From an uncultured delta proteobacterium (GTDB lineage: Bacteria > Desulfobacterota > Binatia > UBA9968), in the NCBI GenBank assembly GCA_963816145.1, contig CAWFJP010000003.1, forward strand, positions 768,001 through 832,000: a DNA stretch of 64,000 bases, written 5' to 3'. Made by a program: the position numbers and the translations under genes. The notes beneath the pieces were generated by a model. The model was not told where the DNA came from. It made no database searches and was given only the letters and a program-made list of their open reading frames with translations. Numbering within the stretch: the first letter of the stretch is position 1; the number at the start of each line of letters is the position of its first letter. Below, in pieces: positions 1-30,160 of this stretch.

Positions 1-639
1 CGCGCCGACACTCCGATCAAAAACATTGATGACTGGCGCAATGCCAAGGAGCCGCCCAAATGCGGCAGCACCGGCACTGGCAGCACCGGCCATTACATCC
101 CGCGCCTACTCGAAGAAACCCTCGGCATCAAGACCCAGATCGTCAGTGGCTATCCCGGTGCGCCGGACATCGAGCTGGCCATCGAGCGCGGCGAAGTGTT
201 TTGCTGGTCACCGCTCAAGGCCACCTACTTCGGCCGCGAGCCCTATCGGCGCTGGCATAAAACCGGTTACGTGCGGGTTCTGGTCCAAACCGGCGCCAAG
301 CGCGATCCACGGCTGAAGGACACGCCGACGCTGGATGAATTGATGCAGCAATACAAATCTCCCGAGCCGGCCCGCCGGCTCGCCAAGGTGATTCTCACCG
401 CCGCCACCTTGGGCCGTCCCGTCGGCACCGCGCCAGGCGTTCCGGCGGATCGGGTAAAGATCCTGCGCGACGCCTACGCCAAAGCCATCGCCGATCCCGA
501 GCTGCTCGCCGAAGCCGCCAAACAAAACTGGGAAGTCGACGCTACCCACGGCGACGAGCTGCAAGCGTTGTCGAAAGAAGTCATGGCTCAGCCCAAAGAA
601 ATCATCGAGCGCATGAAGTGGGTGCTCGGGCGGGAATGA
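1..639 (+). CDS. tctC: Tripartite tricarboxylate transporter substrate-binding protein (TctC/Bug family), 5'-truncated by window edge
   Basis: Frame +1 is open from base 1 (RADTPIKNIDDWRNAKEPPKCGSTG...GYPGAPDIELAIERGE...PTLDE...RPVGTAPGVP); close paralog of 686-1763. Confidence 0.85.
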   Translation, partial: RADTPIKNIDDWRNAKEPPKCGSTGTGSTGHYIPRLLEETLGIKTQIVSGYPGAPDIELAIERGEVFCWSPLKATYFGREPYRRWHKTGYVRVLVQTGAKRDPRLKDTPTLDELMQQYKSPEPARRLAKVILTAATLGRPVGTAPGVPADRVKILRDAYAKAIADPELLAEAAKQNWEVDATHGDELQALSKEVMAQPKEIIERMKWVLGRE

Positions 640-643
640 TATC

Positions 644-675
644 AATTTTGGATTCTCGATTTTAGATTTTGGATT
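644..675. repeat. Short TTTTGGA/TTTTAGA-type tandem repeat arm
   Basis: aattttggattctcgattttagattttggatt directly after the stop codon; same family at 1771-1883, about 14205-14226 and 60706-60728. Confidence 0.7.
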
Positions 676-685
676 GACGGGCTCC

Positions 686-1763
686 ATGCATCGACTATTG
701 CTCTTGACGACAAAGTTTTTCGCATTCTTCTTCGTCCTGACCCTCGAATTCTTGAACCCCTTGAACCTTGAACCGGCGGCGGCGCAAACGCCGCCCTTCT
801 ATCAAGGCAAAACACTCAAGATCGTGGTCGGCTCGGCATCCGGGGGCGGTTACGATCTTTGGGCGCGTTTACTGGCGCTCCATATCGGCAAACATATTCC
901 CGGCCACCCGACCGTGGTCGTGCAGAATCTGCCGGGAGCCGGCGGTTTGGTTGCCGGGAATTTTGTTTATGGTCTAGCCAAGCCTGACGGCCTGACCATC
1001 GGTGCGTTCAACCCGGCGCTCTATTTCGAACAACTGGTCGGCAAGCCGGAGAGCAAGTTTGATTGGACCAAGTTCAGCTGGATCGGCTCGCCCGAGAAAA
1101 ACGACGCTTTGCATTACATCCGCGCCGACTCGCCGTATAAAACCATCGACGATTTGCGCAATGCCAAGGAGCCGGCCAAATGCGGCAGCACCGGCGGCGG
1201 CACCACCGCCCACTATTTTCCCCGGCTGCTCGAAGACACCCTGGGCATCAAAACCACCCAGGTCACCGGCTATCAGGGCGGGTCGGAAATCGATCTCGCC
1301 GTCGAACGCAACGAAATCATCTGCTGGACGCCGCTGATCGCGACCTACTTCGGCCGCGAGCCTTACAAGCGCTGGCACAAGACCGGTTTCGTTCGCGTCG
1401 TCGTCCAGACCGGCGACAAACGCGACGAGCGCTTGAAGGATGTACCAACGCTCACCGAACTGATGCAGCAGTACAAAACTCCAGAGGCCAGCCGCCGGCT
1501 CGCCAAAGTGGTCTTGACCGCCGCCAACCTCGGCCGCCCCATCGCCGGCCCGCCGCGCCTACCGGCGGAACTGCTAAAAACTTTACGCGACGCCTACGCC
1601 AAATCGATGAAAGACCCCGAGCTCCTCGCCGAAGCCGCCAAGCGCGGCTGGGAAGTCGACCCCCATACCGGCGCCGAACTCGAGACGTTGGCGAAGGAAG
1701 TCATCAACCAGCCCAAGGAAGTGATTGAGCATTGAGCGGATGAAATGGGTGCTGGGAAACTAG
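686..1763 (+). CDS. tctC: TctC/Bug-family binding protein; last 8 codons shifted out of frame by a 7-bp duplication (ORF as sequenced ends at 1735)
   Basis: FYQGKTLKIVVGSASGGGYD, VVQNLPGAGG, AKPDGLT motifs. ATTGAGC occurs at 1724-1730 and 1731-1737; removing one copy gives VIERMKWVLGN*, matching the upstream paralog. Confidence 0.85.
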
Positions 1764-1770
1764 AGCCGCC

Positions 1771-1883
1771 AATTTTGGATTTTAGATTTTGGATTTTGGA
1801 TTAGGGGAAAAGAGCGTGAAGAAAAGATCTTGGATGCGATGGCTAGATTCTTCTTCCGATAATCCAAAATCGAAAATCCAAAA
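1771..1883. repeat. Inverted-repeat element (TTTTGGA)n ... (AATCCAAAATC)n overlapping the start of an ABC binding-protein gene
   Basis: Left arm aattttggattttagattttggattttggatta (1771-1803). Right arm taatccaaaatcgaaaatccaaaa (1860-1883) encodes NPKSKIQK. Confidence 0.8.
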
Positions 1884-2876
1884 GCAGCCCCGCGGACCAA
1901 AATGGGGATGGCTTGTTGCCCTCGGCGTCGCGTTCGCAATGGGTGGCGCCGTAGGCGACGCGCAGCAGCAGGCAAAGGTGTTTAAGATTGGCTGGCTCGC
2001 TATCGGTAGCGCCACTTCAATCTCCAGGTATCAGGCGTTCCGGCGTAGCCTCCCTGATCTCGGCTACGTTGAGGGCAAGAATATCTCATTCGAGTTTCGA
2101 TCGGCAGACAACAAGCTCGCCTCGCTTCCCGCGCTAGCTGATGAGTTGGCCCGTCTCAATGTTGACGTAATCGTCACACGCGGCACGCCTGAAGCCCTAG
2201 CTCTCAAAAACGCTACCAGGACAATCCCCATCGTTTTTTACGATGTGACGGATCCAATAGCGGCGGGGCTGGTTGACAGCTTGGCCCGGCCTGGTGGAAA
2301 CATCACGGGGTTTTCCGGCATGGAGGCAGTGTTGGCGGGCAAACGATTGGAGTTACTCAAGGACACCCTTCCAAAACTCTCCCGCGTTGCGGTGCTGTGG
2401 AATCCGCAGGATCTTAGCTCCGCGCAACAATGGAAAGAAAGCCAACTGCCGGCACGAGCACTGGGGCTGCAACTTCATTCCATGGAAGTAAGCAGCGCCG
2501 ATAAATACGAGAACGCGTTCAGAGAGGCAATGAAAGCGCGGAGTGGCGCTCTCGCTGTGATAGCTGGAGCGGCTGGAAGACTCTAACGGACAGAAGATCG
2601 CAGATCTGGCAACAAAAACTCGGCTGCCAGCGATATACCCTCGTACTACTTTTATCGACAGCGGCGGGTTGATGTCCTACGGACGCGACCGAGAAGAGGG
2701 CTGTCAAGCGGGTACCCATTATGGTCGACAAGATTCTCAAGGGAACCAAGCCCGCCGACATTCCTGTCGAGCAGCCAATGAAGTTTGATTTGCCAATTAA
2801 TCTAAAAACCGCCAAGGCACTTGGACTGACGATTCCACCGCTTGTGCTCACGCGGGCGACGAAGGTGATCAAGTAG
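1816..2876 (+). pseudogene. ABC transporter substrate-binding protein (ABC_sub_bind family), two frameshifts
   Basis: LGYVEGKNI, DPIAAGLVDSLARPGGNITG, KRLELLK in frame to about 2575. RLPAIYP..GGLMSYG follows in a second frame, and [18 protein letters not shown]...RATKVIK* in a third (shift about 2700). Confidence 0.8.
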
Positions 2877-2926
2877 GCGCGAGGCTTGAGGCGAAAGGCG
2901 TGAGCAAGATGATGAGAGGAAAGCCG

Positions 2927-3906
2927 ATGATAAGCAGAATCGCCTGCCGACTGTTGGCTGCTTCCATTCCGCTTTTTGTTTCTCAAACCGACGCACAGCA
3001 GCCGGCAAAGGTTGCAAAGATTGGCTGGCTCGCCGTGCGGCCGGCGTCTGCTGCTTTCGCGATCGAGTCATTTCAGCGAGAATTCGGCAAACTCGGCTAT
3101 GTTGACGGGAAGAACATAGTTTTCGAGTATCGATACGCTGAGGGTAATCTCGACCGACTCCCTGCGCTAGCTGACGAACTTGTTCGTCTTAAAGTTGATG
3201 TGCTCATCGCGCCCAATACTCCGGCCGCGTTAGCCGCTAAGAACGCTACCAGATCTATCCCCATCGTTTTTATAGACGTAACCGACCCCATCGCGGCTGG
3301 GCTGATCGATAGCCTGGCGCGGCCTGGCGGGAATATCACGGGGTTTACTACCATTTGAGCAGTGCTGGCCGGCAAAAGACTTGAGTTGCTAAAAGAAACC
3401 GTTCCCAAGCTCTCCCGCGTCGGGGTGCTGTGGGATCCACAAGGACCAAGCTCTGGGCAGGTTGGAAAGAAAGCCAACTGCCGGCAAGAGCTCTGGGCTT
3501 GCAACTTCATTCCATGGAAGTCAGCAGCGCTGACAAATACGATGCAGTGTTCAAGGAGGCAATGAAAGCGCGCGTCGGCGCTGTCGCCTGGATGGCGTCC
3601 CCGCTGGGCGACCTAAATCAAAGGGATACGGTCGAACTAGCGAAGAGATATCGCCTGCCGACAATTTATAGTCGGCAACCGGTTGTCGAAAATGGCGGCC
3701 TGATGTCTTACGGTCCCGACCGGGACGAACCCTTCAGGCGCACCGCCGTTTTTGTCGACAAGATTTTGAAGGGAACTCATCCATCCGACATACCAGTCGA
3801 GCAGCCAACCAAGTTCGAATTGGCGATCAATTTAAAAACTGCCAAAACACTCGGCCTGACTATTCCACCGCTCATGCTCACGCGGGCGACGAAGGTGATC
3901 AAGTAA
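2927..3906 (+). pseudogene. ABC_sub_bind family binding protein with internal stop and frameshift
   Basis: In-frame TGA at 3356-3358 (TTI*AVLAGKRLELLKE) and frameshift near 3460; C-terminus VEQPTKFELAINLKTAK...RATKVIK*. Confidence 0.8.
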
Positions 3907-4026
3907 ATGCAGACAACAGGCACACAGGCAATAGGCAATAGTTAGAACTTCTCATTGCACTCAGCCCAGACTCCACGGTATTCATAACCCGCGCGATTGC
4001 TCAAAATAACCATGAGGTGATTCTGG

Positions 4027-5121
4027 ATGCGTGGAATAAAAGATTTGTTCAAGAGTTCAAAAGTTCAAGGGTTCAATCGGATTCTTCTCGGTATTCTTTT
4101 TCTGACCCTTGAACTTTTGAACCCTTTGAACCTTGAACCGGCGTCTGCGCAGCAGACGCCCTTCTACCAAGGCAAAACCATCACATGGATCGTCGGCAGC
4201 AAGGCGGGCGATGCTTATGATCTTTATCCGCGCCTGCTGGCCGAGTATCTGCCCAAGTATATTCCCGGCAATCCCAATATTATCATTCAGAACGTCGGCG
4301 GCGCGGCCTCGCTGATCGCGGCCAACCAAGTGTACAGCGTCGCCAAGCCCGACGGATTGACTCTCGGCGCGATCTATCCGGCGCTTTATTTCGATCAACT
4401 GGTGAAACGGCCGGAAGTAAAATACGACTGGAATAAATTTTCCTGGATCGGCAGCCCGGTGAGTTCCAACCACATGATGTACATGCGCGCGGATACACCC
4501 TTTAAAACCATCGACGACCTGCGCACCGCCGCGCAGCCGCCGAAATGCGGCTCCAGCGGGGTCAATTCGACCGGCTACTACATTCCCAAACTGATGGAAG
4601 AAGCGATCGGCGCCAAGATCGAAATGGTCGCCGGCTATCCGGGTGGCCAGGATATCGAACTTGCGGTCGAGCGCGGCGAATTAGTGTGCCGATCGTTTAC
4701 GATCACAACGTTCCATAGCCGCGAGCCGTTTTTTACCTGGCGCAAGAAAAACTTCGTCCGCGTGCTCTACCAAACTGGCACCAAGCGAGACCCGCGCTTG
4801 AAAGACGTGCCGACAATGTATGAGATAATGGATCGCTACAAGACACCGGAATCGGTGCGCAAGCTCGCCAAGGTAATCCTGATCGCCAGTGATTTGGGCC
4901 GGCCTATCGTGGCGCCGCCGGGCGTGCCTCCAGCGCGCTTGAAAACCATCCGCGAGGCCTTCAACAAAGCGGTCGCTGACCCGGCCTTCTTAGCCGACGC
5001 GGACAAGCGCAAGCTTGAAATCGATCCATCGTCTTGGGAAGAGATGGAATCCTTGGCCAAGGAGGCGATGGCGACGCCGCCTGATGTTGTCGATAGAATG
5101 AAAAAGATTCTCGGCATGTGA
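4027..5121 (+). CDS. tctC: TctC/Bug-family binding protein
   Basis: Signal peptide ..ASAQ, FYQGKTI, IIQNVGGA, AKPDGLTLG, GYPGGQDIELAVERGE, PIVAPPGVP. Confidence 0.9.
   Translation: MRGIKDLFKSSKVQGFNRILLGILFLTLELLNPLNLEPASAQQTPFYQGKTITWIVGSKAGDAYDLYPRLLAEYLPKYIPGNPNIIIQNVGGAASLIAANQVYSVAKPDGLTLGAIYPALYFDQLVKRPEVKYDWNKFSWIGSPVSSNHMMYMRADTPFKTIDDLRTAAQPPKCGSSGVNSTGYYIPKLMEEAIGAKIEMVAGYPGGQDIELAVERGELVCRSFTITTFHSREPFFTWRKKNFVRVLYQTGTKRDPRLKDVPTMYEIMDRYKTPESVRKLAKVILIASDLGRPIVAPPGVPPARLKTIREAFNKAVADPAFLADADKRKLEIDPSSWEEMESLAKEAMATPPDVVDRMKKILGM
4047..4138. repeat. GTTCAA x4 / TTGAAC x4 inverted-repeat array inside the signal-peptide coding sequence
   Basis: GTTCAA at 4047, 4055, 4063, 4071 and TTGAAC at 4109, 4117, 4126, 4133. 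Equivalent arrays at 5169-5257, 6286-6374, 7405-7493; right arm only at about 744-773. Confidence 0.85.
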
Positions 5122-5133
5122 CGTAATCCAAAA

Positions 5134-6243
5134 ATGAGGTCTTTCATGACGCAACGAACGAAACATCCGTTCAAAAGTTCAAACGTTCAAACGCTCAAGG
5201 TTCTCGGGCTCGTGATTTTTTCCGTCGTTGAACTTTTGAATCCTTTGAACCTTGAACGGGCGTCTGCCCAGCAGACGCCTTTCTATCAAGGCAAAACCAT
5301 CCGGATCATCGTCGGCAATCTGCCGGGCGACACCCATGACATCTTCGCCCGCGCTTACTCGCGCCACATGGGCAAACATATTCCCGGCTTCCCTAACATT
5401 GTCGTGCAAAACATGCCCGGAGCCGGCGGCATGATCGCGGCCAACCATGTCTACAACGTCGCGAAACCGGATGGACTGACACTCGGCTCCCCGTCCCCGG
5501 CGCTTTATTACGCGCAACTGGTTGGCCGGAAAGAGGTCAAATTCGATTGGCCCAAGTTCAACTTCATCGGTTCGCCGGAGCGCAATGGTCACTTGTTATT
5601 CATGCGCTCAGACTCGCCCTACAAAACTCTCGACGACATCCGGAAAGCCAAGGAGCCGCCCAAGTGTGCCGCTACGGGAGTTGGCACCAGCGGCCACGAC
5701 GTGCCCAAACTGTTCGACGAGATGATCGGCTTGAAGTTCAACCTGATCACCGGCTATCCCGGCGGCGCCGAAATGGATTTGGCCATCGAACGTGGGGAAG
5801 CGGTATGCCGCGCCATTACCGTGGCGGCGTTCTTCGCCCGAGAGCCATTTGTCACCTGGTACAAAACCGGTGTCGTGCGTGTGCTTCTGCAAACCTCGCG
5901 GCAGAGAAATCCGAAAATTCCCGATGTGCCGACTTTGTTCGAGCTCATGGAGCAGTACAAAACGCCGGAGATCAAGCGCCGCCAGGTGCTAGTCTATCTC
6001 GGCGTCGGCGGCTTCGGCGCCTGGCCGATTCTCTCCACACCCGGAATACCCGCGGAGCGCGTGACGACTCTCCGCGAAGGGTTCAGCAAAACCATGAAAG
6101 ATCCGGATTTCTTGGCGGAAGCGAAAAAAGCCGGTTGGGAGATCCGCCCCACCAGCGGCGAAGATTTGCAAGCGCTAGCGAAGGAAGTCATCGACCAGCC
6201 ACCGGAAGTGGTCGAGTGGCTAAAAAAATTATTGGCGAAATAA
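5134..6243 (+). CDS. tctC: TctC/Bug-family binding protein
   Basis: FYQGKTIRIIVG, VQNMPGAGG, AKPDGLTLG, GYPGGAEMDLAIERGE; start could be 5146. Confidence 0.9.
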   Translation: MRSFMTQRTKHPFKSSNVQTLKVLGLVIFSVVELLNPLNLERASAQQTPFYQGKTIRIIVGNLPGDTHDIFARAYSRHMGKHIPGFPNIVVQNMPGAGGMIAANHVYNVAKPDGLTLGSPSPALYYAQLVGRKEVKFDWPKFNFIGSPERNGHLLFMRSDSPYKTLDDIRKAKEPPKCAATGVGTSGHDVPKLFDEMIGLKFNLITGYPGGAEMDLAIERGEAVCRAITVAAFFAREPFVTWYKTGVVRVLLQTSRQRNPKIPDVPTLFELMEQYKTPEIKRRQVLVYLGVGGFGAWPILSTPGIPAERVTTLREGFSKTMKDPDFLAEAKKAGWEIRPTSGEDLQALAKEVIDQPPEVVEWLKKLLAK

Positions 6244-6262
6244 ATTTACTGAGAGAGGCTCT

Positions 6263-7360
6263 ATGGCACTTCAATTAATCACGTCGTTCAAAAATTCAAA
6301 GGTTCAAACGTTCAATTTTCTCGGATTCTTGCTCCTCTCCGTCGTTGAGCTTTTGAACCCCTTGAACCTTGAACGGGCGTCTGCCCAGCAGGCGCCTTAT
6401 TATCAAGGCAAAACCATCCGCGTCGTCGTCGGCTATCAGGCCGGCGACTCGCACGACCAGTGGGCGCGCACCTACACGCGTTATCTCGGCAAATTCATTC
6501 CAGGCAACCCCACCTTCCTGGTGCAAAACATGCCCGGCGCCGGCGGCATGATCGCCGCCAACTACATCTTCAACGTCGCCAAGCAGGATGGCTTGACCAT
6601 GGGCACCATCGGCGGCGCGCTTTACTTCGCCCAATTGATTGGCCGCAGCGAAGCAAAATACGACTGGAACAAATTCACCTGGATCGGCACGCCGGAGAAA
6701 AGCGGCTTTCTCGTCTTTATGCGCACCGACGCGCCCTATAAGACTCTCGACGACCTGCGCACTACCAACGATCCGCCGCGCTGCTCGGCCACCGGCGTCG
6801 GCAGCAGCGGTTACGACATTCCGCGCGTTCTGGAAGACACGGTCGGAATGAAGTTTAAAGTCATCAGCGGTTACCCCGGCGGTGCCGATCAAGATTTGGC
6901 AATGGAGCGCGGCGAAGTGCAATGCCGAGCATTTACCATCGACGCTTTCTTTGGCCGCGAACCCTTTCCCACCTGGGTGAAAAAGGGCTTTGTCCGCGTC
7001 ATCATACAGATGGAACGCAAGCGCCACCCCAAGCTGCAGGACGTGCCGACGCTCTGGGAGCTGATGGATCAATACAAAGTGCCGGAAGCGAAGCGGCGGC
7101 TCGCCACGGTTTATTTGAACAGCGGCCTGTTCGGTTCTCGCCCCATCGTCTCGACACCCGGCCTCACCGCGGAGCAAGCGAAAATTCTCCGCGAAGCCTA
7201 CGTCAAGACGCTCAAAGATCCGGAATTCCTGGACGAGATCACCAAGCGCGGTTGGACGGTCGATGCCGTGAGCGGCGAAGATCTGCAGGTTCTAGCTAAG
7301 GAAGTCACGACCCAGCCGCCGGAAGTCATCGATTGGCTGAAAAAACTGTTGACCAAATAA
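6263..7360 (+). CDS. tctC: TctC/Bug-family binding protein
   Basis: RBS GAGAGG, YYQGKTIRVVVG, VQNMPGAGG, GYPGGADQDLAMERGE. Confidence 0.9.
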   Translation: MALQLITSFKNSKVQTFNFLGFLLLSVVELLNPLNLERASAQQAPYYQGKTIRVVVGYQAGDSHDQWARTYTRYLGKFIPGNPTFLVQNMPGAGGMIAANYIFNVAKQDGLTMGTIGGALYFAQLIGRSEAKYDWNKFTWIGTPEKSGFLVFMRTDAPYKTLDDLRTTNDPPRCSATGVGSSGYDIPRVLEDTVGMKFKVISGYPGGADQDLAMERGEVQCRAFTIDAFFGREPFPTWVKKGFVRVIIQMERKRHPKLQDVPTLWELMDQYKVPEAKRRLATVYLNSGLFGSRPIVSTPGLTAEQAKILREAYVKTLKDPEFLDEITKRGWTVDAVSGEDLQVLAKEVTTQPPEVIDWLKKLLTK

Positions 7361-7390
7361 GCCGAAGTAAGAAGGCGAACGAGGTCGGTC

Positions 7391-8476
7391 TTGAAAATCA
7401 TTTTGGTCAAAAGTCCAAAGGTTCAAAGGTTCAACGTTCTCGGGTTCTTGATCCTCTCCGTGCTTGAACTTTTGCACCCTTTGAACCTTGAACGAGCGTC
7501 AGCACAGACGCCCTACTATCAAGGCAAAACCATCCGGTTCATCGTCGGCTACCAACCCGGTGACAATCACGACCAGTGGTCGCGCGCCTATGCGCGCTTC
7601 ATGGGCAAGTATCTTCCCGGCAATCCCAACTTTCTCGTGCAAAATATGCCGGGCGCCGGCGCGATGATCGCGGCCAATCATATCTACAACATGACCAAGC
7701 CGGACGGCTTGACGCTCGGCACCCTCGGCGGCGCCTTGATCATGGCGCAGATCACCGGCCGCAAGGAAGTGCAATTCGATTGGTCTAAGTTCGGTTGGAT
7801 CGGCACGCCGTACCGCGCCGGTCATGTGCTGTTCATGCGCAGCGATACGCCGGTCAAGACCTTGGAGCAACTGCGCCAGACCAACGACCCGCCGCGCTGT
7901 TCCGCCACCGGCGTTGGCAGCACCGGCTATGACATTCCGCGCTTGCTCGAAGACGCCTTCGGCTTCAAATTCAAAGTCATCAGCGGCTACCCAGGTGGCG
8001 CCGATCAAGACCTGGCGATGGAAAGAAACGAAGTGCAGTGCCGCGCCATCACCACCGACGGTTTCTTCGGCCGCGAGCCGTTTATTACATGGTACAAGAA
8101 AGGCTTTGTGCGTATCTGGCTGCAAACCGAAAAGCAGCGCCACCCCAAAGCCGCTGACGCGCCGACGATTTTCGAGTTAATGGATCAATTCAAGATCGCC
8201 GATACCAAGCGGCGCTTGGTGCATACTTACTTGGGCTTGTGGGGCTTTGGCTCGATGCCGGTGATCACTTCGCCAGGATTACCCGCCGAGCGCCTGACGA
8301 TGCTGCGCGACGCTTGGGCCAAGACCTTCGCCGATGCGGAATTTCAAGAGGACCTCGCCAAGCGAAACTGGGAAGCCCGGCCGGTATTCGGTGAAGAACT
8401 GCAAAATCTCGCCAAAGATGTAGTCAATCAGCCGCCGGAAGTCGCCAGCGCGCTGAAACGAATTCTCGGTCAATAA
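7391..8476 (+). CDS. tctC: TctC/Bug-family binding protein
   Basis: GAGG RBS with TTG start; YYQGKTIRFIVG, VQNMPGAGA, close paralog of 6263-7360. Confidence 0.9.
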   Translation: MKIILVKSPKVQRFNVLGFLILSVLELLHPLNLERASAQTPYYQGKTIRFIVGYQPGDNHDQWSRAYARFMGKYLPGNPNFLVQNMPGAGAMIAANHIYNMTKPDGLTLGTLGGALIMAQITGRKEVQFDWSKFGWIGTPYRAGHVLFMRSDTPVKTLEQLRQTNDPPRCSATGVGSTGYDIPRLLEDAFGFKFKVISGYPGGADQDLAMERNEVQCRAITTDGFFGREPFITWYKKGFVRIWLQTEKQRHPKAADAPTIFELMDQFKIADTKRRLVHTYLGLWGFGSMPVITSPGLPAERLTMLRDAWAKTFADAEFQEDLAKRNWEARPVFGEELQNLAKDVVNQPPEVASALKRILGQ

Positions 8477-8513
8477 TATAGACTCGGTAAATCAAGTTTT
8501 GCGGCTAATTCTG

Positions 8514-8542
8514 TTGACGGTCATCGCTAGATGCGATAAGCA
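8514..8542 (+). promoter_or_regulatory. Possible sigma70 promoter for tctA
   Basis: TTGACG-17 nt-TAAGCA about 40 bp upstream of the ATG. Confidence 0.35.
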
Positions 8543-8580
8543 GCATGAGCCGCTAACATACGCGGCATCAGGAGACTTTC

Positions 8581-10080
8581 ATGCTTGACGCTTTTATCAG
8601 TGGATTTTGGCAAACCGTCGCATGGCCGGCCTTCGGCTACATGCTGATCGGTATCTCCATCGGCTTTTTCGTCGGCCTGCTACCGGGTATCGGCGGCTTA
8701 TCGACGCTCGCGCTCATGCTGCCATTTTCCTACTCGATTAAGGAGCCCATCGCAGCCTTCGCCTTTCTGCTTGGCATGTTGGCCGTCACCGGCACCACCG
8801 GCGATTTGACTTCGATCTTGTTCGGGATCCCTGGGGAGGGGTCCTCCGCCGCCTTGATACTCGACGGCTACCCAATGTCAAAAAACGGTGAGGCCGGCCG
8901 CGCCTTGGGTGCGGCGATCATGAGTTCAGTCCTCGGCTCAGTCATTGGCGCCCTGTCGCTGGCGTTATCGATCCCGATCATGCGGCCGTTGGTACTGCTG
9001 TTCGGCTCGCCGGAACTGTTCATCATCGCCATCATGGGTATCACCTTCATCGGCACATTGGCCGGACCGTCGCTCATCAAGGGGCTGCTCGCCGGCGGTA
9101 TCGGCCTCATGCTCGCCTCAATCGGCGTCGACCCGCAAACCGGCTCGTTACGATACACCTTCGGCACGCTCTATCTTTGGGATCGGCTTGATCTCATCCC
9201 GGTGGTTGTCGGCATGTTCGCGATCCCCGAGATCGTCGATCTCGCGGTGCGCGGCACCAGTATCGCCAGTGACAAACAAGAAAAGCTCCACGGCGTCATG
9301 GAAGGCGTCAAAGACACCTTCGTCCACTTCTGGTTGGTGGTGCGATGCAGCTTGATCGGCGTCTATTTCGGCGTCCTACCGGTGCTCGGCGCCAACGTCG
9401 CCCAATGGATATCCTATGCGCACGCAGTGCAAGGCTTGAAAGACAAGTCGCGCGCCGGTAAAGGCGCCATCGAAGGCCTTCTTGGCCCCGGCGCGGCTAA
9501 TAATTCGACACGTGGCGGTGATCTGATCCCAACGATAGCATTCGGCATACCGGGAAGCGGAGCAATGGCTTTGCTGCTCGGAGCGATGTTGATCGTCGGC
9601 TTGAATCCCGGCCCGGAGATGCTCAAGTCCCGTCTCGATGTCACATTCTCGATGGTCTGGGTACTAATCCTCGCCAACATCATCGTCGCGGCACTGTGTT
9701 TCTTGATCTTGAACCACTTGGCTGCGCTGACGTTTATCCGCGGCGCATTATTGATCCCGTTCCTGTTGTTCTTGGTATTCATCGGATCGTTCACCGCTAA
9801 TAACGACCTCGCCGACATCGTCGTCACGCTGCTCTTCGGGATCATTGGCTACTGCATGGTCAAATTCGGTTGGCCGCGGCCGCCGCTCATCCTCGGCCTT
9901 ACCCTCGGGAAAATTGCCGAAAACTATTTGTGGATCTCCACGGCAGCTTACGGCGCCAAATGGCTGCTCTTCCCGACCGTAATGGGCCTCATCGCCCTCA
10001 CCATATTCACCGTTGCCTACCCGACCATCAAAGAACGCATGGGCAAAGCGAAGTACGAACGGCCAGAGGACGCGGTGTAG
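8581..10080 (+). CDS. tctA: Tripartite tricarboxylate transporter large permease TctA
   Basis: 499 aa, highly hydrophobic; GLLPGIG, SILFGIPG....DGYPMSKNGEAGRALG, AANN...G.LIPTIAFGIPGS, PGP motifs. Confidence 0.93.
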   Translation: MLDAFISGFWQTVAWPAFGYMLIGISIGFFVGLLPGIGGLSTLALMLPFSYSIKEPIAAFAFLLGMLAVTGTTGDLTSILFGIPGEGSSAALILDGYPMSKNGEAGRALGAAIMSSVLGSVIGALSLALSIPIMRPLVLLFGSPELFIIAIMGITFIGTLAGPSLIKGLLAGGIGLMLASIGVDPQTGSLRYTFGTLYLWDRLDLIPVVVGMFAIPEIVDLAVRGTSIASDKQEKLHGVMEGVKDTFVHFWLVVRCSLIGVYFGVLPVLGANVAQWISYAHAVQGLKDKSRAGKGAIEGLLGPGAANNSTRGGDLIPTIAFGIPGSGAMALLLGAMLIVGLNPGPEMLKSRLDVTFSMVWVLILANIIVAALCFLILNHLAALTFIRGALLIPFLLFLVFIGSFTANNDLADIVVTLLFGIIGYCMVKFGWPRPPLILGLTLGKIAENYLWISTAAYGAKWLLFPTVMGLIALTIFTVAYPTIKERMGKAKYERPEDAV

Positions 10081-10093
10081 GCCGCGTCCGGCA

Positions 10094-10124
10094 GTCACGG
10101 GTTACGAGTCTCGGGTTTCGTGTT
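10094..10124 (+). repeat. Tandem heptamer run after the tctA stop
   Basis: GTCACGG GTTACGA GTCTCGG GTTTCGT GTT. Confidence 0.55.
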
Positions 10125-10269
10125 AAAACGGTACCCGAGATTTTTTTTGTCCAGTTCGATCATTGCATGATCAATCTAGAACCCGGAGCCGCTTCATAGC
10201 AGTTGACAGCGACTTGCTTTCAGTGGGATAAGCAAAGCATCTGACAGATCCAAGGGAGGACATCCAATT

Positions 10270-11934
10270 ATGGCTCATGATGTAGTCATTAAGAACGGCA
10301 ACGTCATCGACGGTAGCGGCAGTCCGGCTTTCCAAGCGGATGTTGCCATCGATGGCGACAAAATCACCGCCATCGGTAAAAATCTCGGCGGCGGCTCGAA
10401 GGAGATCGACGCCAAAGGGCATGTCGTCGCGCCCGGTTTCATCGATTCGCATACCCACATGGATGCGTTCGTCGTCCAGTACCCCAACGGCAACCCGGTA
10501 GTGAACTATGGCGTCACCAGCATCGTCATCGGCGACTGCGGCGCCTCCTGCGCGCCGGTGCCGCCCAAGCCCGAGCCGCGCAAAGTTTTGGTCGAATACC
10601 TGCGCCGCGTGCTCGACAAATATGTCGACGACAAAGATTGGCGCTGGAATACTTTCGGCGAATATTTGAACTATCTTGAAGGCAAGATCGCCATCAACTG
10701 TTTGCCGCTCATGCCCCACTCTCCAGTCCGGTTAACTGTCATGGGCGAAGCCGCCTACCAGCGCGCCGCCAATCCCGAAGAGCTAAACGCCATGAAGGCG
10801 ATGGTGCGCGAAGGCATGGAATTGGGCGCCATTGGCTTCTCCACCAGCCCGCGCGGCGGCCCGGCAATTCACGCCGGCACACCGAGCACCTTTGCCGAGC
10901 ATCAAGAGATCATCGAACTCGCCAATGTCGCCGCCGAGTACAAGGGCTGTTTTCAATTCAACGGCTTCCAGATGGTCCTGCAACCGGAGTCCGGCGTGCC
11001 GGAGATGCTGACCAAAATCAAAGCGCTGCAGATCGGCAACGAGTTCCGTGTCCGGCCCGGCGCCAAAGCCGCAGGCATGGAATCGATTAGATACATGGAA
11101 GAAGCGCAAAAGCGCGGCCAAGATATTTACGGCGTCGTCATTCCGTACCAGCATATTCGGCGATTTAACCTGGATGACTGCTTCCTATTCAACGGCCTGC
11201 CGACCTGGGAGGCGATTAAGAACTCCAATGATCTCAAAGCCAAGTTGAGCGACAAAGACACCCGCCGTAAGATCGAACAAGAGCGCATCGCCTGCCAAGG
11301 CAAGCTCGAGTTTCCCGAATGGCATGGCTGGGACCGCGTCGTGTTCGAGCATCTGGAAAAACCGGAACTCAAGAAACTCGAACAGAAGAACATGGCTGAA
11401 GTCGCCCGCCTCACCGAGAAACAACCGGTGGACGCCTTCTTTGACATCTGGATCGAGGACAACTTCAACTCGCAGATTCTCTATCACGGCCTCGCCAACG
11501 CGCATCCCGAACTGCTCGCCGAGATGATCAAGTCCGACACCAGCTTGATCGGCACCGACGTCGGCGCCCATCTCGACCGCTTCTTCTGGCATGGCGCGCC
11601 AACCAAGATCCTGGGCTACTGGCGCCGCGAGAAACATCTCATGAGCTTGGAAGCCGCCGTGCACAAACTTACAGGCTATCCGGCGAAAAAACTGCGCCTC
11701 AACCGGGGATTGGTGCGAGAAGGAATGCCGGCCGACGTGACGGTGTTCGACGCCGACAAGATCGACGATTTGGTCAGCAAAAAACTCCCCGACATGGTCG
11801 ACGCTCAGGAAGTGCAACGCCACCCGCCCGGAATGAAAGCCGTGCTGGTTAACGGCGCCACCGTCGTCGAAGACGGTCACTGCCTCGACGTTTTCCCCGG
11901 CAAAGTGCGCCGTCAGCAACTCTGCCTGAACTAA
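10270..11934 (+). CDS. N-acyl-D-amino-acid deacylase-like amidohydrolase
   Basis: DVVIKNGNVIDGSG, APGFIDSHTHMD, SLEAAVHKLTGYPA, RGLVREGMPADVTVFD, VLVNG. Confidence 0.85.
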   Translation: MAHDVVIKNGNVIDGSGSPAFQADVAIDGDKITAIGKNLGGGSKEIDAKGHVVAPGFIDSHTHMDAFVVQYPNGNPVVNYGVTSIVIGDCGASCAPVPPKPEPRKVLVEYLRRVLDKYVDDKDWRWNTFGEYLNYLEGKIAINCLPLMPHSPVRLTVMGEAAYQRAANPEELNAMKAMVREGMELGAIGFSTSPRGGPAIHAGTPSTFAEHQEIIELANVAAEYKGCFQFNGFQMVLQPESGVPEMLTKIKALQIGNEFRVRPGAKAAGMESIRYMEEAQKRGQDIYGVVIPYQHIRRFNLDDCFLFNGLPTWEAIKNSNDLKAKLSDKDTRRKIEQERIACQGKLEFPEWHGWDRVVFEHLEKPELKKLEQKNMAEVARLTEKQPVDAFFDIWIEDNFNSQILYHGLANAHPELLAEMIKSDTSLIGTDVGAHLDRFFWHGAPTKILGYWRREKHLMSLEAAVHKLTGYPAKKLRLNRGLVREGMPADVTVFDADKIDDLVSKKLPDMVDAQEVQRHPPGMKAVLVNGATVVEDGHCLDVFPGKVRRQQLCLN

Positions 11935-22508: not shown

Positions 22509-22626
22509 GTTCTAATCGTTTCAACCGTTCAAGCCGTTTCGAACCGCTTCCGGAAAAAGACTGCACAAGCCCAAAATTCGGATAATTGTTTTTTGAACGG
22601 CTTGAACATTTAGAACCACTTGACCT
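22509..22626. repeat. Free-standing GTTCAA/TTGAAC inverted-repeat element between convergent genes
   Basis: gttctaatcgtttcaaccgttcaagccgtttcgaacc ... tttgaacggcttgaacatttagaaccacttgacc. Confidence 0.7.
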
Positions 22627-30084: not shown

Positions 30085-30160
30085 GAAACGATTGGAACTA
30101 CTGGAACCACTATCTCTCTGACGATTTGAACGTTTTGAACGGCTTGAACGTTTTGAACGG
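30085..30160. repeat. TTGAAC 9-bp-period tandem arm
   Basis: tttgaacgttttgaacggcttgaacgttttgaacgg directly 3' of the stop of the minus-strand amidohydrolase. Confidence 0.75.

Follow-up and report, generated by a model that had tools for sequence, protein, structure and literature searches.

The question raised by this locus is how a multicopy repeat that lies mostly between genes came to stand in the coding leader of one tctC gene after another. The locus belongs to a 64,000-nucleotide stretch, here called the window, of an uncultured delta proteobacterium (GenBank assembly GCA_963816145.1, contig CAWFJP010000003.1, positions 768,001 to 832,000; G000:C3:768001-832000 in our numbering). The source genome comprises 7.82 Mb at 56% GC, and its closest named relatives are soil and wetland metagenome-assembled genomes (MAGs) labelled Candidatus Binatia or 'Deltaproteobacteria'. 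TctC-family genes (PF03401) stand in tandem within window positions 1-8476, with starts at 674, 4027, 5146 (or 5134), 6263 and 7391, and a TctA gene follows at 8581-10080; all five array genes belong to the family by profile score, with 32-71 bits against a curated cut-off of 27. Arrays of the hexamer GTTCAA and of its complement TTGAAC lie in the leaders of these genes. The answer that we favour, and that we consider moderately probable, is that a palindromic repeat was taken over as the Sec signal peptide of TctC and was then spread and homogenised by recombination within the tandem arrays.

In the four genes from 4027 onward the 5' ends share one order of parts: a Shine-Dalgarno (SD)-like GAGG, the start codon, 5-9 codons, a left arm with as many as four GTTCAA every 8 bp, some 30 nt rich in T, a right arm of four TTGAAC spaced 8, 9 and 7, a GC-rich stem-loop, and FYQGK, the conserved start of the mature part. 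The order is clearest in paralogue 1 on the plus strand (gene 4027-5121, PF03401 match at E 1.2e-13), where an SD-like GAGGTG and an ATG (4014-4029) provide an in-frame start upstream of the left arm. That arm (4047-4076) consists of four exact GTTCAA and reads FKSSKVQGFN in the n-region; the 32-nt T-rich loop (4077-4108) reads RILLGILFLT, the hydrophobic core; the right arm (4109-4138), with four exact TTGAAC, reads LELLNPLNLE; and the GC stem-loop GGCGTCTGC-GCA-GCAGACGCC (4140-4160, -17.0 kcal/mol) reads (P)ASAQQTP, which contains the Ala-X-Ala site and the first mature residues. The loop of this gene begins TCGGATTC and ends GACC, as do the short loops of intergenic copies. Three further cassettes lie downstream on the same strand: that of paralogue 2 at 5146-5280 (ATG 5146, left arm 5169-5198, right arm 5228-5257, GC hairpin 5258-5280), that of paralogue 3 at 6263-6396 (ATG 6263, left arm 6286-6315, right arm 6345-6374, GC hairpin 6375-6396), and that of paralogue 4 at 7391-7513 (TTG 7391, a degenerate left arm at 7405-7434, right arm 7464-7493, a weak 5-bp hairpin at 7494-7513). 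In these three genes each arm has two or three exact hexamers and one or two units with one mismatch. The paralogue at 674-1735, also on the plus strand, has a leader without a left arm (686-796), in which the right arm at 744-773 is followed by a GC hairpin of the GGCGGCG/CGCCGCC type at 775-795.

Such an arrangement is far from chance: the window contains 8 copies of GTTCAANNGTTCAA, where 100 shuffles gave 0, and 73 of the bare hexamer, where 32 +/- 5 are expected. Fold z-scores against shuffles for the leaders of genes 4027, 5146, 6263 and 7391 are -7.2, -4.7, -7.2 and -2.4, respectively. An earlier account made from the letters alone (the sequence-only reading) had described arrays in the leaders of four consecutive tctC genes, with a right arm only in a fifth, and had translated them as FKSSKVQxFN...ELLNPLNLE; both the layout and the translation are correct, the full leader peptide being FKSSKVQxFN-[hydrophobic]-ELLNPLNLE(P/R)A(S/A)AQ. 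Four exact hexamers at an 8-bp period make up the left arm of gene 4027; its right arm is spaced 8, 9, 7, and so is not of a uniform 8-bp period, and the arms of the other genes are partly mismatched. The GC-rich stem-loop on the cleavage-site codons, directly 3' of the right arm, was absent from that account.

We use the term cassette for the DNA from the tctC start codon to FYQGK. In the explanation proposed here, its arms would derive from paired opposite-strand arrays of GTTCAANN, similar to repetitive extragenic palindromic (REP) sequences and bacterial interspersed mosaic elements (BIMEs). The left arm would supply a Lys/Arg/Ser-rich n-region, the enlarged T-rich loop the hydrophobic core, and the right arm, as LELLNPLNLE, the first part of a long c-region, while the GC stem-loop would supply the rest of the c-region, namely Ala-X-Ala, Gln and the first two to four mature residues. 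We compared the leaders with ordinary signal peptides by our own script, taking as Sec-type criteria a charged n-region, a core of at least about 10 residues and small residues at -3 and -1 (Ala-X-Ala) shortly after the core. The median n-region charge is +4 in the leaders and +1 in the ordinary peptides, the best 10-residue Kyte-Doolittle mean of the core is 2.87 and 3.01, respectively, and the Ala-X-Ala motif is present in the leaders; the median signal peptide length is about 41 residues against about 23 (125 ordinary peptides scored). Cleavage would be expected at this Ala-X-Ala. The related structures in the PDB, which are the TBP, BugD and TTT binding proteins (E 7e-7 to 2e-4), align only from query residue 43-54 onward, and this fits a mature start right after the ASA at residue 42.

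The ordinary peptides come from a set of 159 TctC-like genes, collected from the source genome and 54 related loci. Only 28 of these carry the leader motif; the other 131, among which we scored the copy of locus L040 at 522 with its frameshifted leader, have the ordinary form M(K/R)...LLL...AQ(A/T)P followed by FYQGK. The comparison with homologues that lack the repeats, which the sequence-only reading had proposed, yields 131 genes with ordinary short signal peptides. In addition, residues 1-48 were searched against 5.8 billion proteins, covering proteins of 200-637 residues, and gave 53 clusters, all of them TctC: 49 with PF03401, and four without a Pfam match that are frameshifted TctC fragments. 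One metagenome protein (P0034) is a TctC with the left arm twice in its leader: FKSAKVQGLKVLSHRFKSSKVQRFKV.

The arms themselves were very probably derived from a repeat specific to the genus. Genome-wide we found 205 array clusters, which fall into subfamilies of 8-bp and 9-bp period, and in a typical copy two arrays, one on each strand, enclose a loop whose length varies. The repeat is thus a short imperfect palindrome, multicopy and mostly intergenic, as REP/BIME-like repeats are. Most copies lie outside genes. On a map of 6715 genes from our own crude caller, the 134 arrays of at least three hexamers comprise 104 in intergenic DNA, 6 at the edges of genes and 24 within longest open reading frames (ORFs). 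Ten of the 24 are tctC leaders, and another 10 sit no more than 93 nt from a 5' end that is over-extended; of the rest, 3 are close to a 3' end and a single one is internal. For four of the 10 at over-extended 5' ends an in-frame start 3' of the array is likelier, and two are ambiguous (C29 26088 and C29 352200). Two free copies in the window, both between convergent genes and neither assigned to a strand, are real and intergenic, as the sequence-only reading had it, but the copy at 22509-22626 and the TTGAAC array at 30085-30160 belong to the related 9-bp subfamily and not to the 8-bp subfamily of the leaders, whose intergenic copies lie elsewhere in the genome. With such intergenic copies the leader arms share 94-97% identity over 31-33 nt (right arm compared).

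The range of the repeat is equally narrow. Of 24 genomes of the genus, 21 have three-unit 8-bp arrays and 13 have the tctC-type right arm, and neither was found in any of 16 genomes that represent other families of the order. The right arm gives 55 matches, 4 of them in the source genome (the unpublished genome G005 enters these tallies by counts only). Most of these matches recur at intervals of about 1.1 kb, the distance that tandem tctC genes would give, and all four of the isolated matches that we fetched are tctC leaders. The match of the arms to intergenic copies, the restriction to one genus and the ordinary signal peptides of most homologues together support an origin of the leader from the repeat.

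That the leader is translated as a signal peptide is a claim that we make with good confidence. Of 29 leaders, 20 have an in-frame ATG, GTG or TTG ahead of the left arm, and 15 of these starts are preceded at 4-9 nt by a GAGG-like SD motif; the remaining nine are two leaders without a left arm, one with degenerate arms and an ATG, one truncated locus, one identical copy and four frame-broken leaders. True starts downstream of the left arm, which the sequence-only reading had named as the result that would speak against it, are thus not what the genes display. A constant 8-nt spacing of TTGAAC puts a TGA in every frame, and intergenic arms spaced 8-8-7 or 8-8-8 are closed in all frames; spacing 8-9-7, in turn, is found in all four of the four-unit tctC arms and in 0 of 60 others, and spacing 9-7 in all three such tctC arms and in 0 of 67 others. 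These spacings, confined to tctC, hold the frame open with TGA out of frame, and it would be the one extra base of the right arm (8-9-7, against 8-8-7 in the closest intergenic copies) that does so.

A reading in which the leader is untranslated, the true starts lie downstream and the arms form an intercistronic or 5' untranslated-region regulatory hairpin can draw on the in-frame TTG codons within the right arm, on the four of 29 leaders that are frame-broken upstream, and on published surveys in which many REPs annotated at the N-termini of ORFs are probably not coding (PMC3733652). It is nevertheless very improbable: a start in the right arm would leave a periplasmic binding protein without a hydrophobic core, the 20 leaders just described can be read without interruption from a start that precedes the left arm, differences in leader length are mostly multiples of three (3, 3 and 9 nt), and the spacing of the arms avoids TGA.

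Translation is not the only constraint on the leaders. In the mature parts CTT makes up 9% of Leu codons, GTT 11% of Val codons, and AGT and TCA 8% and 4% of Ser codons, and these rare codons are the rule in the leader arms, where they preserve the hexamers. In 163 gene pairs with less than 60% amino-acid identity, the fraction of identical residues that share their codon is 0.53 for the mature parts but 0.87 for the right arm and 0.83 for the left. The arms thus do not show the free synonymous variation that the sequence-only reading would have taken as a refutation. This constraint bears on the possibility that the peptide drives the conservation, in which case LELLNPLNLE and FKSSKVQ would serve as a targeting or pro-peptide motif and the DNA repeats would be no more than a result of selection on them. 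The peptide is indeed conserved in the 53 metagenome protein clusters, more so than the mature part. However, selection on a peptide needs no such choice of codons that are rare in the same genes, the same DNA arrays abound between genes, and the mature N-terminus (QQTP, QTPP, QAN) changes along with the hairpin sequence, so that we attach next to no weight to this explanation.

A second level of nucleotide constraint is seen in the GC hairpin, which in 25 of 28 leaders has a stem of at least 5 pairs. The hairpin exists in no fewer than four self-complementary versions, GGCGTCTGC/GCAGACGCC, GGCGGCG/CGCCGCC, ATTCGC/GCGAAT and GTTGGC/GCCAAT, and they change the residues around the cleavage site (ASAQQTP, AAAQTPP, AFAQAN and SLAQAN). 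The centre of the hairpin shifts by about 2 nt between types, and the types look like the product of replacement rather than of pairwise compensation. The mean minimum free energy of the hairpin region is -12.3 kcal/mol in the leaders against -6.0 shuffled, and the same 33 nt in the 131 ordinary homologues give -5.5 against -4.9 shuffled; the hairpin is specific to the genes with the leader.

Several lines of evidence point to a cassette that moves. On a tree of 152 mature TctC domains the leader is not monophyletic: its label changes 10 times, at least 8 of these changes being forced by well-supported branches and one of them being the mis-scored L040 copy. In one orthologous slot the leader is present in four genomes and an ordinary signal peptide in locus L002, and the flanks of the L002 slot are homologous, with the end of the upstream gene and the mature region aligning throughout. 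The leader of gene 5146 is of the subtype FKVLGLVIFSVVELL, and that of L001b, an orthologue almost identical to it, is of another, FNRTLIGFLFLTLELL. The hairpin type agrees in 29 of 58 pairs within genomes as compared with 62 of 348 between genomes, and with pairs inside the source genome set aside the figures are 12 of 13 and 62 of 348. Between the paralogues of the source genome the mean DNA identity is 0.73 in the leader and 0.65 in the mature part (45 pairs), and the best pair reaches 0.90 in the leader, unconstrained loop included, against 0.65 in the mature part. Each array leader is bounded by tctC homology on both sides. Spread of the leader by recombination is likely on these grounds. 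Gene conversion or unequal exchange through the flanking tctC homology would copy the cassette from paralogue to paralogue, and this copying would keep the cassette repeat-like, swap its subtypes and confine it to tctC.

Other observations weigh against takeover of a repeat as a signal peptide as we have set it out, and we gather them here. The gap between core and Ala-X-Ala is unusually long, with a median of 13 residues in the leaders as compared with 7 in ordinary peptides. The gene calls used to place the arrays are weak, and the tree was built with FastTree only. An association with REP-associated tyrosine transposases (RAYTs) was not found, since of seven PF01797 matches the six fetched with their flanks have no array within 1.5 kb; a link to RAYT/IS200 elements was accordingly dropped, with no arrays near the six Y1 transposase genes examined. 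In four of the 29 leaders (C3_766549, C13_67178, L022 and L040a) the frame is broken, with arms and mature ORF intact. The breaks are one extra nucleotide in the loop in L056 (G000:C3:766200-768000), one nucleotide missing from the left arm in L057 (G000:C13:66800-68300), two extra in the loop in L022, and one extra in the GC hairpin in L040. They could be slippage mutations or assembly errors at hairpins, and the orthologue in genome G004 of the frame-broken C13 gene is in frame.

The remaining points of this kind concern the palindromes. Only 15 of 270 arrays outside tctC have a GC hairpin beside them, and where such hairpins lie near co-directional genes they are mostly on the opposite side relative to transcription (9 against 2); being rare and opposite-sided outside tctC, the hairpin may not belong to the repeat, and the notion that it is a regular module of the intergenic element was withdrawn on these same counts. 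Compensatory changes between the arms, for which the sequence-only reading had proposed a test across the paralogues, were not seen: mutated hexamers are uncompensated in the partner arm. RNAalifold returned 8 consensus pairs at -1.5 kcal/mol, 0 of 8 with changes on both sides, in an alignment where hexamers pair in several registers and hairpin columns are misaligned, and a conserved RNA structure attested by compensatory base pairs was thus not recovered. Folding is better for the sense than for the antisense strand in 16 of 28 leaders and differs by -1.2 kcal/mol on average, which is uninformative. A search of Rfam gave two chance matches far below the gathering scores and no family at threshold.

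Given neither compensation nor a strand bias, a function of the hairpins in mRNA can only be proposed, and we regard it as tentative that they act in the transcript, for example as REP-like stabilisers between tightly packed cistrons. The sequence-only reading had offered an mRNA hairpin or a recombination site at each 5' end; its recombination half gains support from the non-monophyly of the leader, the slot swaps and hairpin types that follow the genome, whereas its hairpin half lacks the compensation or strand bias that would favour it. Palindromy is maintained, be it by selection on an RNA stem, by a DNA-level process such as gene conversion, or by a binding protein. Template-switch 'correction' of quasi-palindromes is one DNA-level process that could maintain palindromes. 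A role of the GC hairpin with the FY codons as a terminator or attenuator was also considered and rejected, with no leader hairpin among the 13 terminator-like sites in 1-10500, a number to be compared with 14.1 in shuffles. One metatranscriptome run held 5% of the sampled words. Short contigs covered parts of genes 2-4, and a relative's contig spanned an ATG together with a left arm and a loop; these contigs carry no strand or end information and may include DNA carry-over, and are uninformative on transcription, as are the stretches that no contig covered.

Some of these points would fit a tolerated passenger, that is, a selfish palindrome that landed in a permissive leader and is homogenised there, and whose peptide motifs and hairpins have no function of their own. 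The leader would be permissive in that nearly any sequence will do for a signal peptide, provided that its start is charged and its core hydrophobic. Intact arms in frame-broken leaders indicate that arms can persist without translation as one frame, there is neither compensatory change nor strand bias, and the hairpin type tracks the genome rather than the gene lineage. Against this, the cassette is the sole signal peptide of these genes and so is more than a mere insert, the 8-9-7 spacing, found only in tctC, and the enlarged T-rich loop look adapted to coding, and the self-complementarity of the GC hairpin survives at least four sequence replacements. We therefore judge a passenger to be unlikely, although an 'exapted' leader cannot be told from a 'tolerated but indispensable' one on sequence data.

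A further proposal is that the arrays are sites for a DNA- or RNA-binding regulator by which the tctC paralogues are co-regulated, coding being secondary. It agrees with the hexamers being conserved singly and not as base pairs, and with the genes at 674 and C3_767676, in which the right arm persists although there is no left arm. Counting against it, the 8-bp period is out of step with the DNA helical repeat, we identified no candidate binding protein, and binding alone leaves the GC hairpin unexplained. The architecture does recall the class 1 'predicted global regulator binding sites' of Geobacter metallireducens (Aklujkar et al. 2009, PMC2700814), which are likewise multicopy and consist of four tandem octanucleotides in opposite-strand pairs at a variable distance. 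Their consensus, however, is GTTGCTYN where that of the present arrays is GTTCAANN, and the Geobacter assignment is itself a prediction. Overall, regulator sites are a rather improbable explanation.

A close precedent is the enterobacterial repeat RU-2, which forms part of the predicted signal peptide of YPO1552, a protein whose homologues in other genera have unrelated signal sequences (Delihas 2007, PMC2759123). The likeness lies in a repeat within a signal peptide whose homologues have unrelated ones (PMC2759123). Unlike RU-2, which concerns one hypothetical protein and only part of its signal peptide, the tctC cassette spans the whole signal peptide of a multi-gene family across a genus (the 55 right-arm matches lie in 14 genomes), with measured codon constraint and evidence of exchange between paralogues. 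In-frame palindromic repeats translated in genes that stay functional are known as Rickettsia palindromic elements (RPEs; Ogata et al. 2000, via PMC10969869 and PMC3733652). Like RPEs, the present repeat is contained in an ORF without a shift of frame, except in four frame-broken copies of 29, and homologues lack it. RPEs, however, occur in many unrelated genes and mostly inside mature proteins, whereas the tctC cassette is confined to one family and to its leader, which is predicted to be cleaved; in addition, an RPE is a single conserved sequence of about 150 bp and the cassette is built from tandem hexamer arrays. REPs and BIMEs are short multicopy palindromes, mostly intergenic, with some overlapping ORF ends or lying inside ORFs, and a role as mRNA stabilisers has been proposed for them (PMC3733652). 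Unlike these, the tctC-family repeat is without an evident GTAG/CGTC tag, no RAYT association was found, and its arms are 6-mer arrays with 1-3-nt spacers. Beyond Delihas 2007, we found nothing relevant on REP-derived signal peptides in the open-access literature searched. What is new here is the gene-family scale across a genus, the mapping of cassette parts onto signal-peptide regions, the dual constraint and the exchange of cassettes.

Other arrays and genes complete the description of the locus. Fragments of ABC_sub_bind (PF04392) genes interrupt the tctC array: three ORFs in 1834-3906 cover profile positions 16-188, 20-111 and 155-293 of 293, and resemble pseudogenes that have been truncated or split. 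Another family of 8-bp arrays occurs at 640-672 and 1775-1885, GATTTTGG... / ...CCAAAATC. Its arms at 1775-1885 flank the ATG at 1834 of an ABC_sub_bind gene, and the right arm there would read DNPKSKIQKQ in the n-region of the protein. Elsewhere in the source genome, GTTCAA arrays may read as the basic n-region of signal peptides in two other secreted proteins, whose start codons are ambiguous (G000:C29:26006-27103 and C29:352175-353278; MRSKFKVQGSRILQSMAAAW... and ...GSKRSSRSNRSKRLGFAIPL..., respectively), and a predicted ORF of 572 residues contains an in-frame 8-bp array around residue 400 (VQGSRVQG; G000:C11:296497-298212, minus strand). Many 9-bp array pairs enclose a nested palindrome, CCCCCTCC...CTCCCCCGCG.CGCGGGGGAG...GGAGGGGG, as at C3:740181-740274 and C8:35157-35242. 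Finally, contigs of three metagenome runs stop at the leaders, at window positions 4131, 5274 and 6369-6391, and so the repeat fragments short-read assemblies of tctC gene arrays.

For annotation, this carries a warning: N-terminal repeats in the binding-protein genes of these MAGs are probably coding, and assemblies break there. For the study of dual coding, the leaders offer a clean natural case in many copies, in which one stretch of 120 nt is under constraint as repeat or palindrome and, at once, as a protein segment, the predicted signal peptide, and in which ordinary signal peptides in orthologous slots and frame-broken copies serve as internal controls. They further outline a route by which new signal peptides may come from non-coding repeats and then spread through tandem paralogues by recombination. 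The general statement, that signal peptides can arise from selfish palindromic repeats and be traded as cassettes, is one that we put forward with reserve. In such a case the unit under maintenance would be the nucleic-acid palindrome rather than the peptide, and the cassette would set even the first residues of the mature protein, with subtype swaps among near-identical orthologues.

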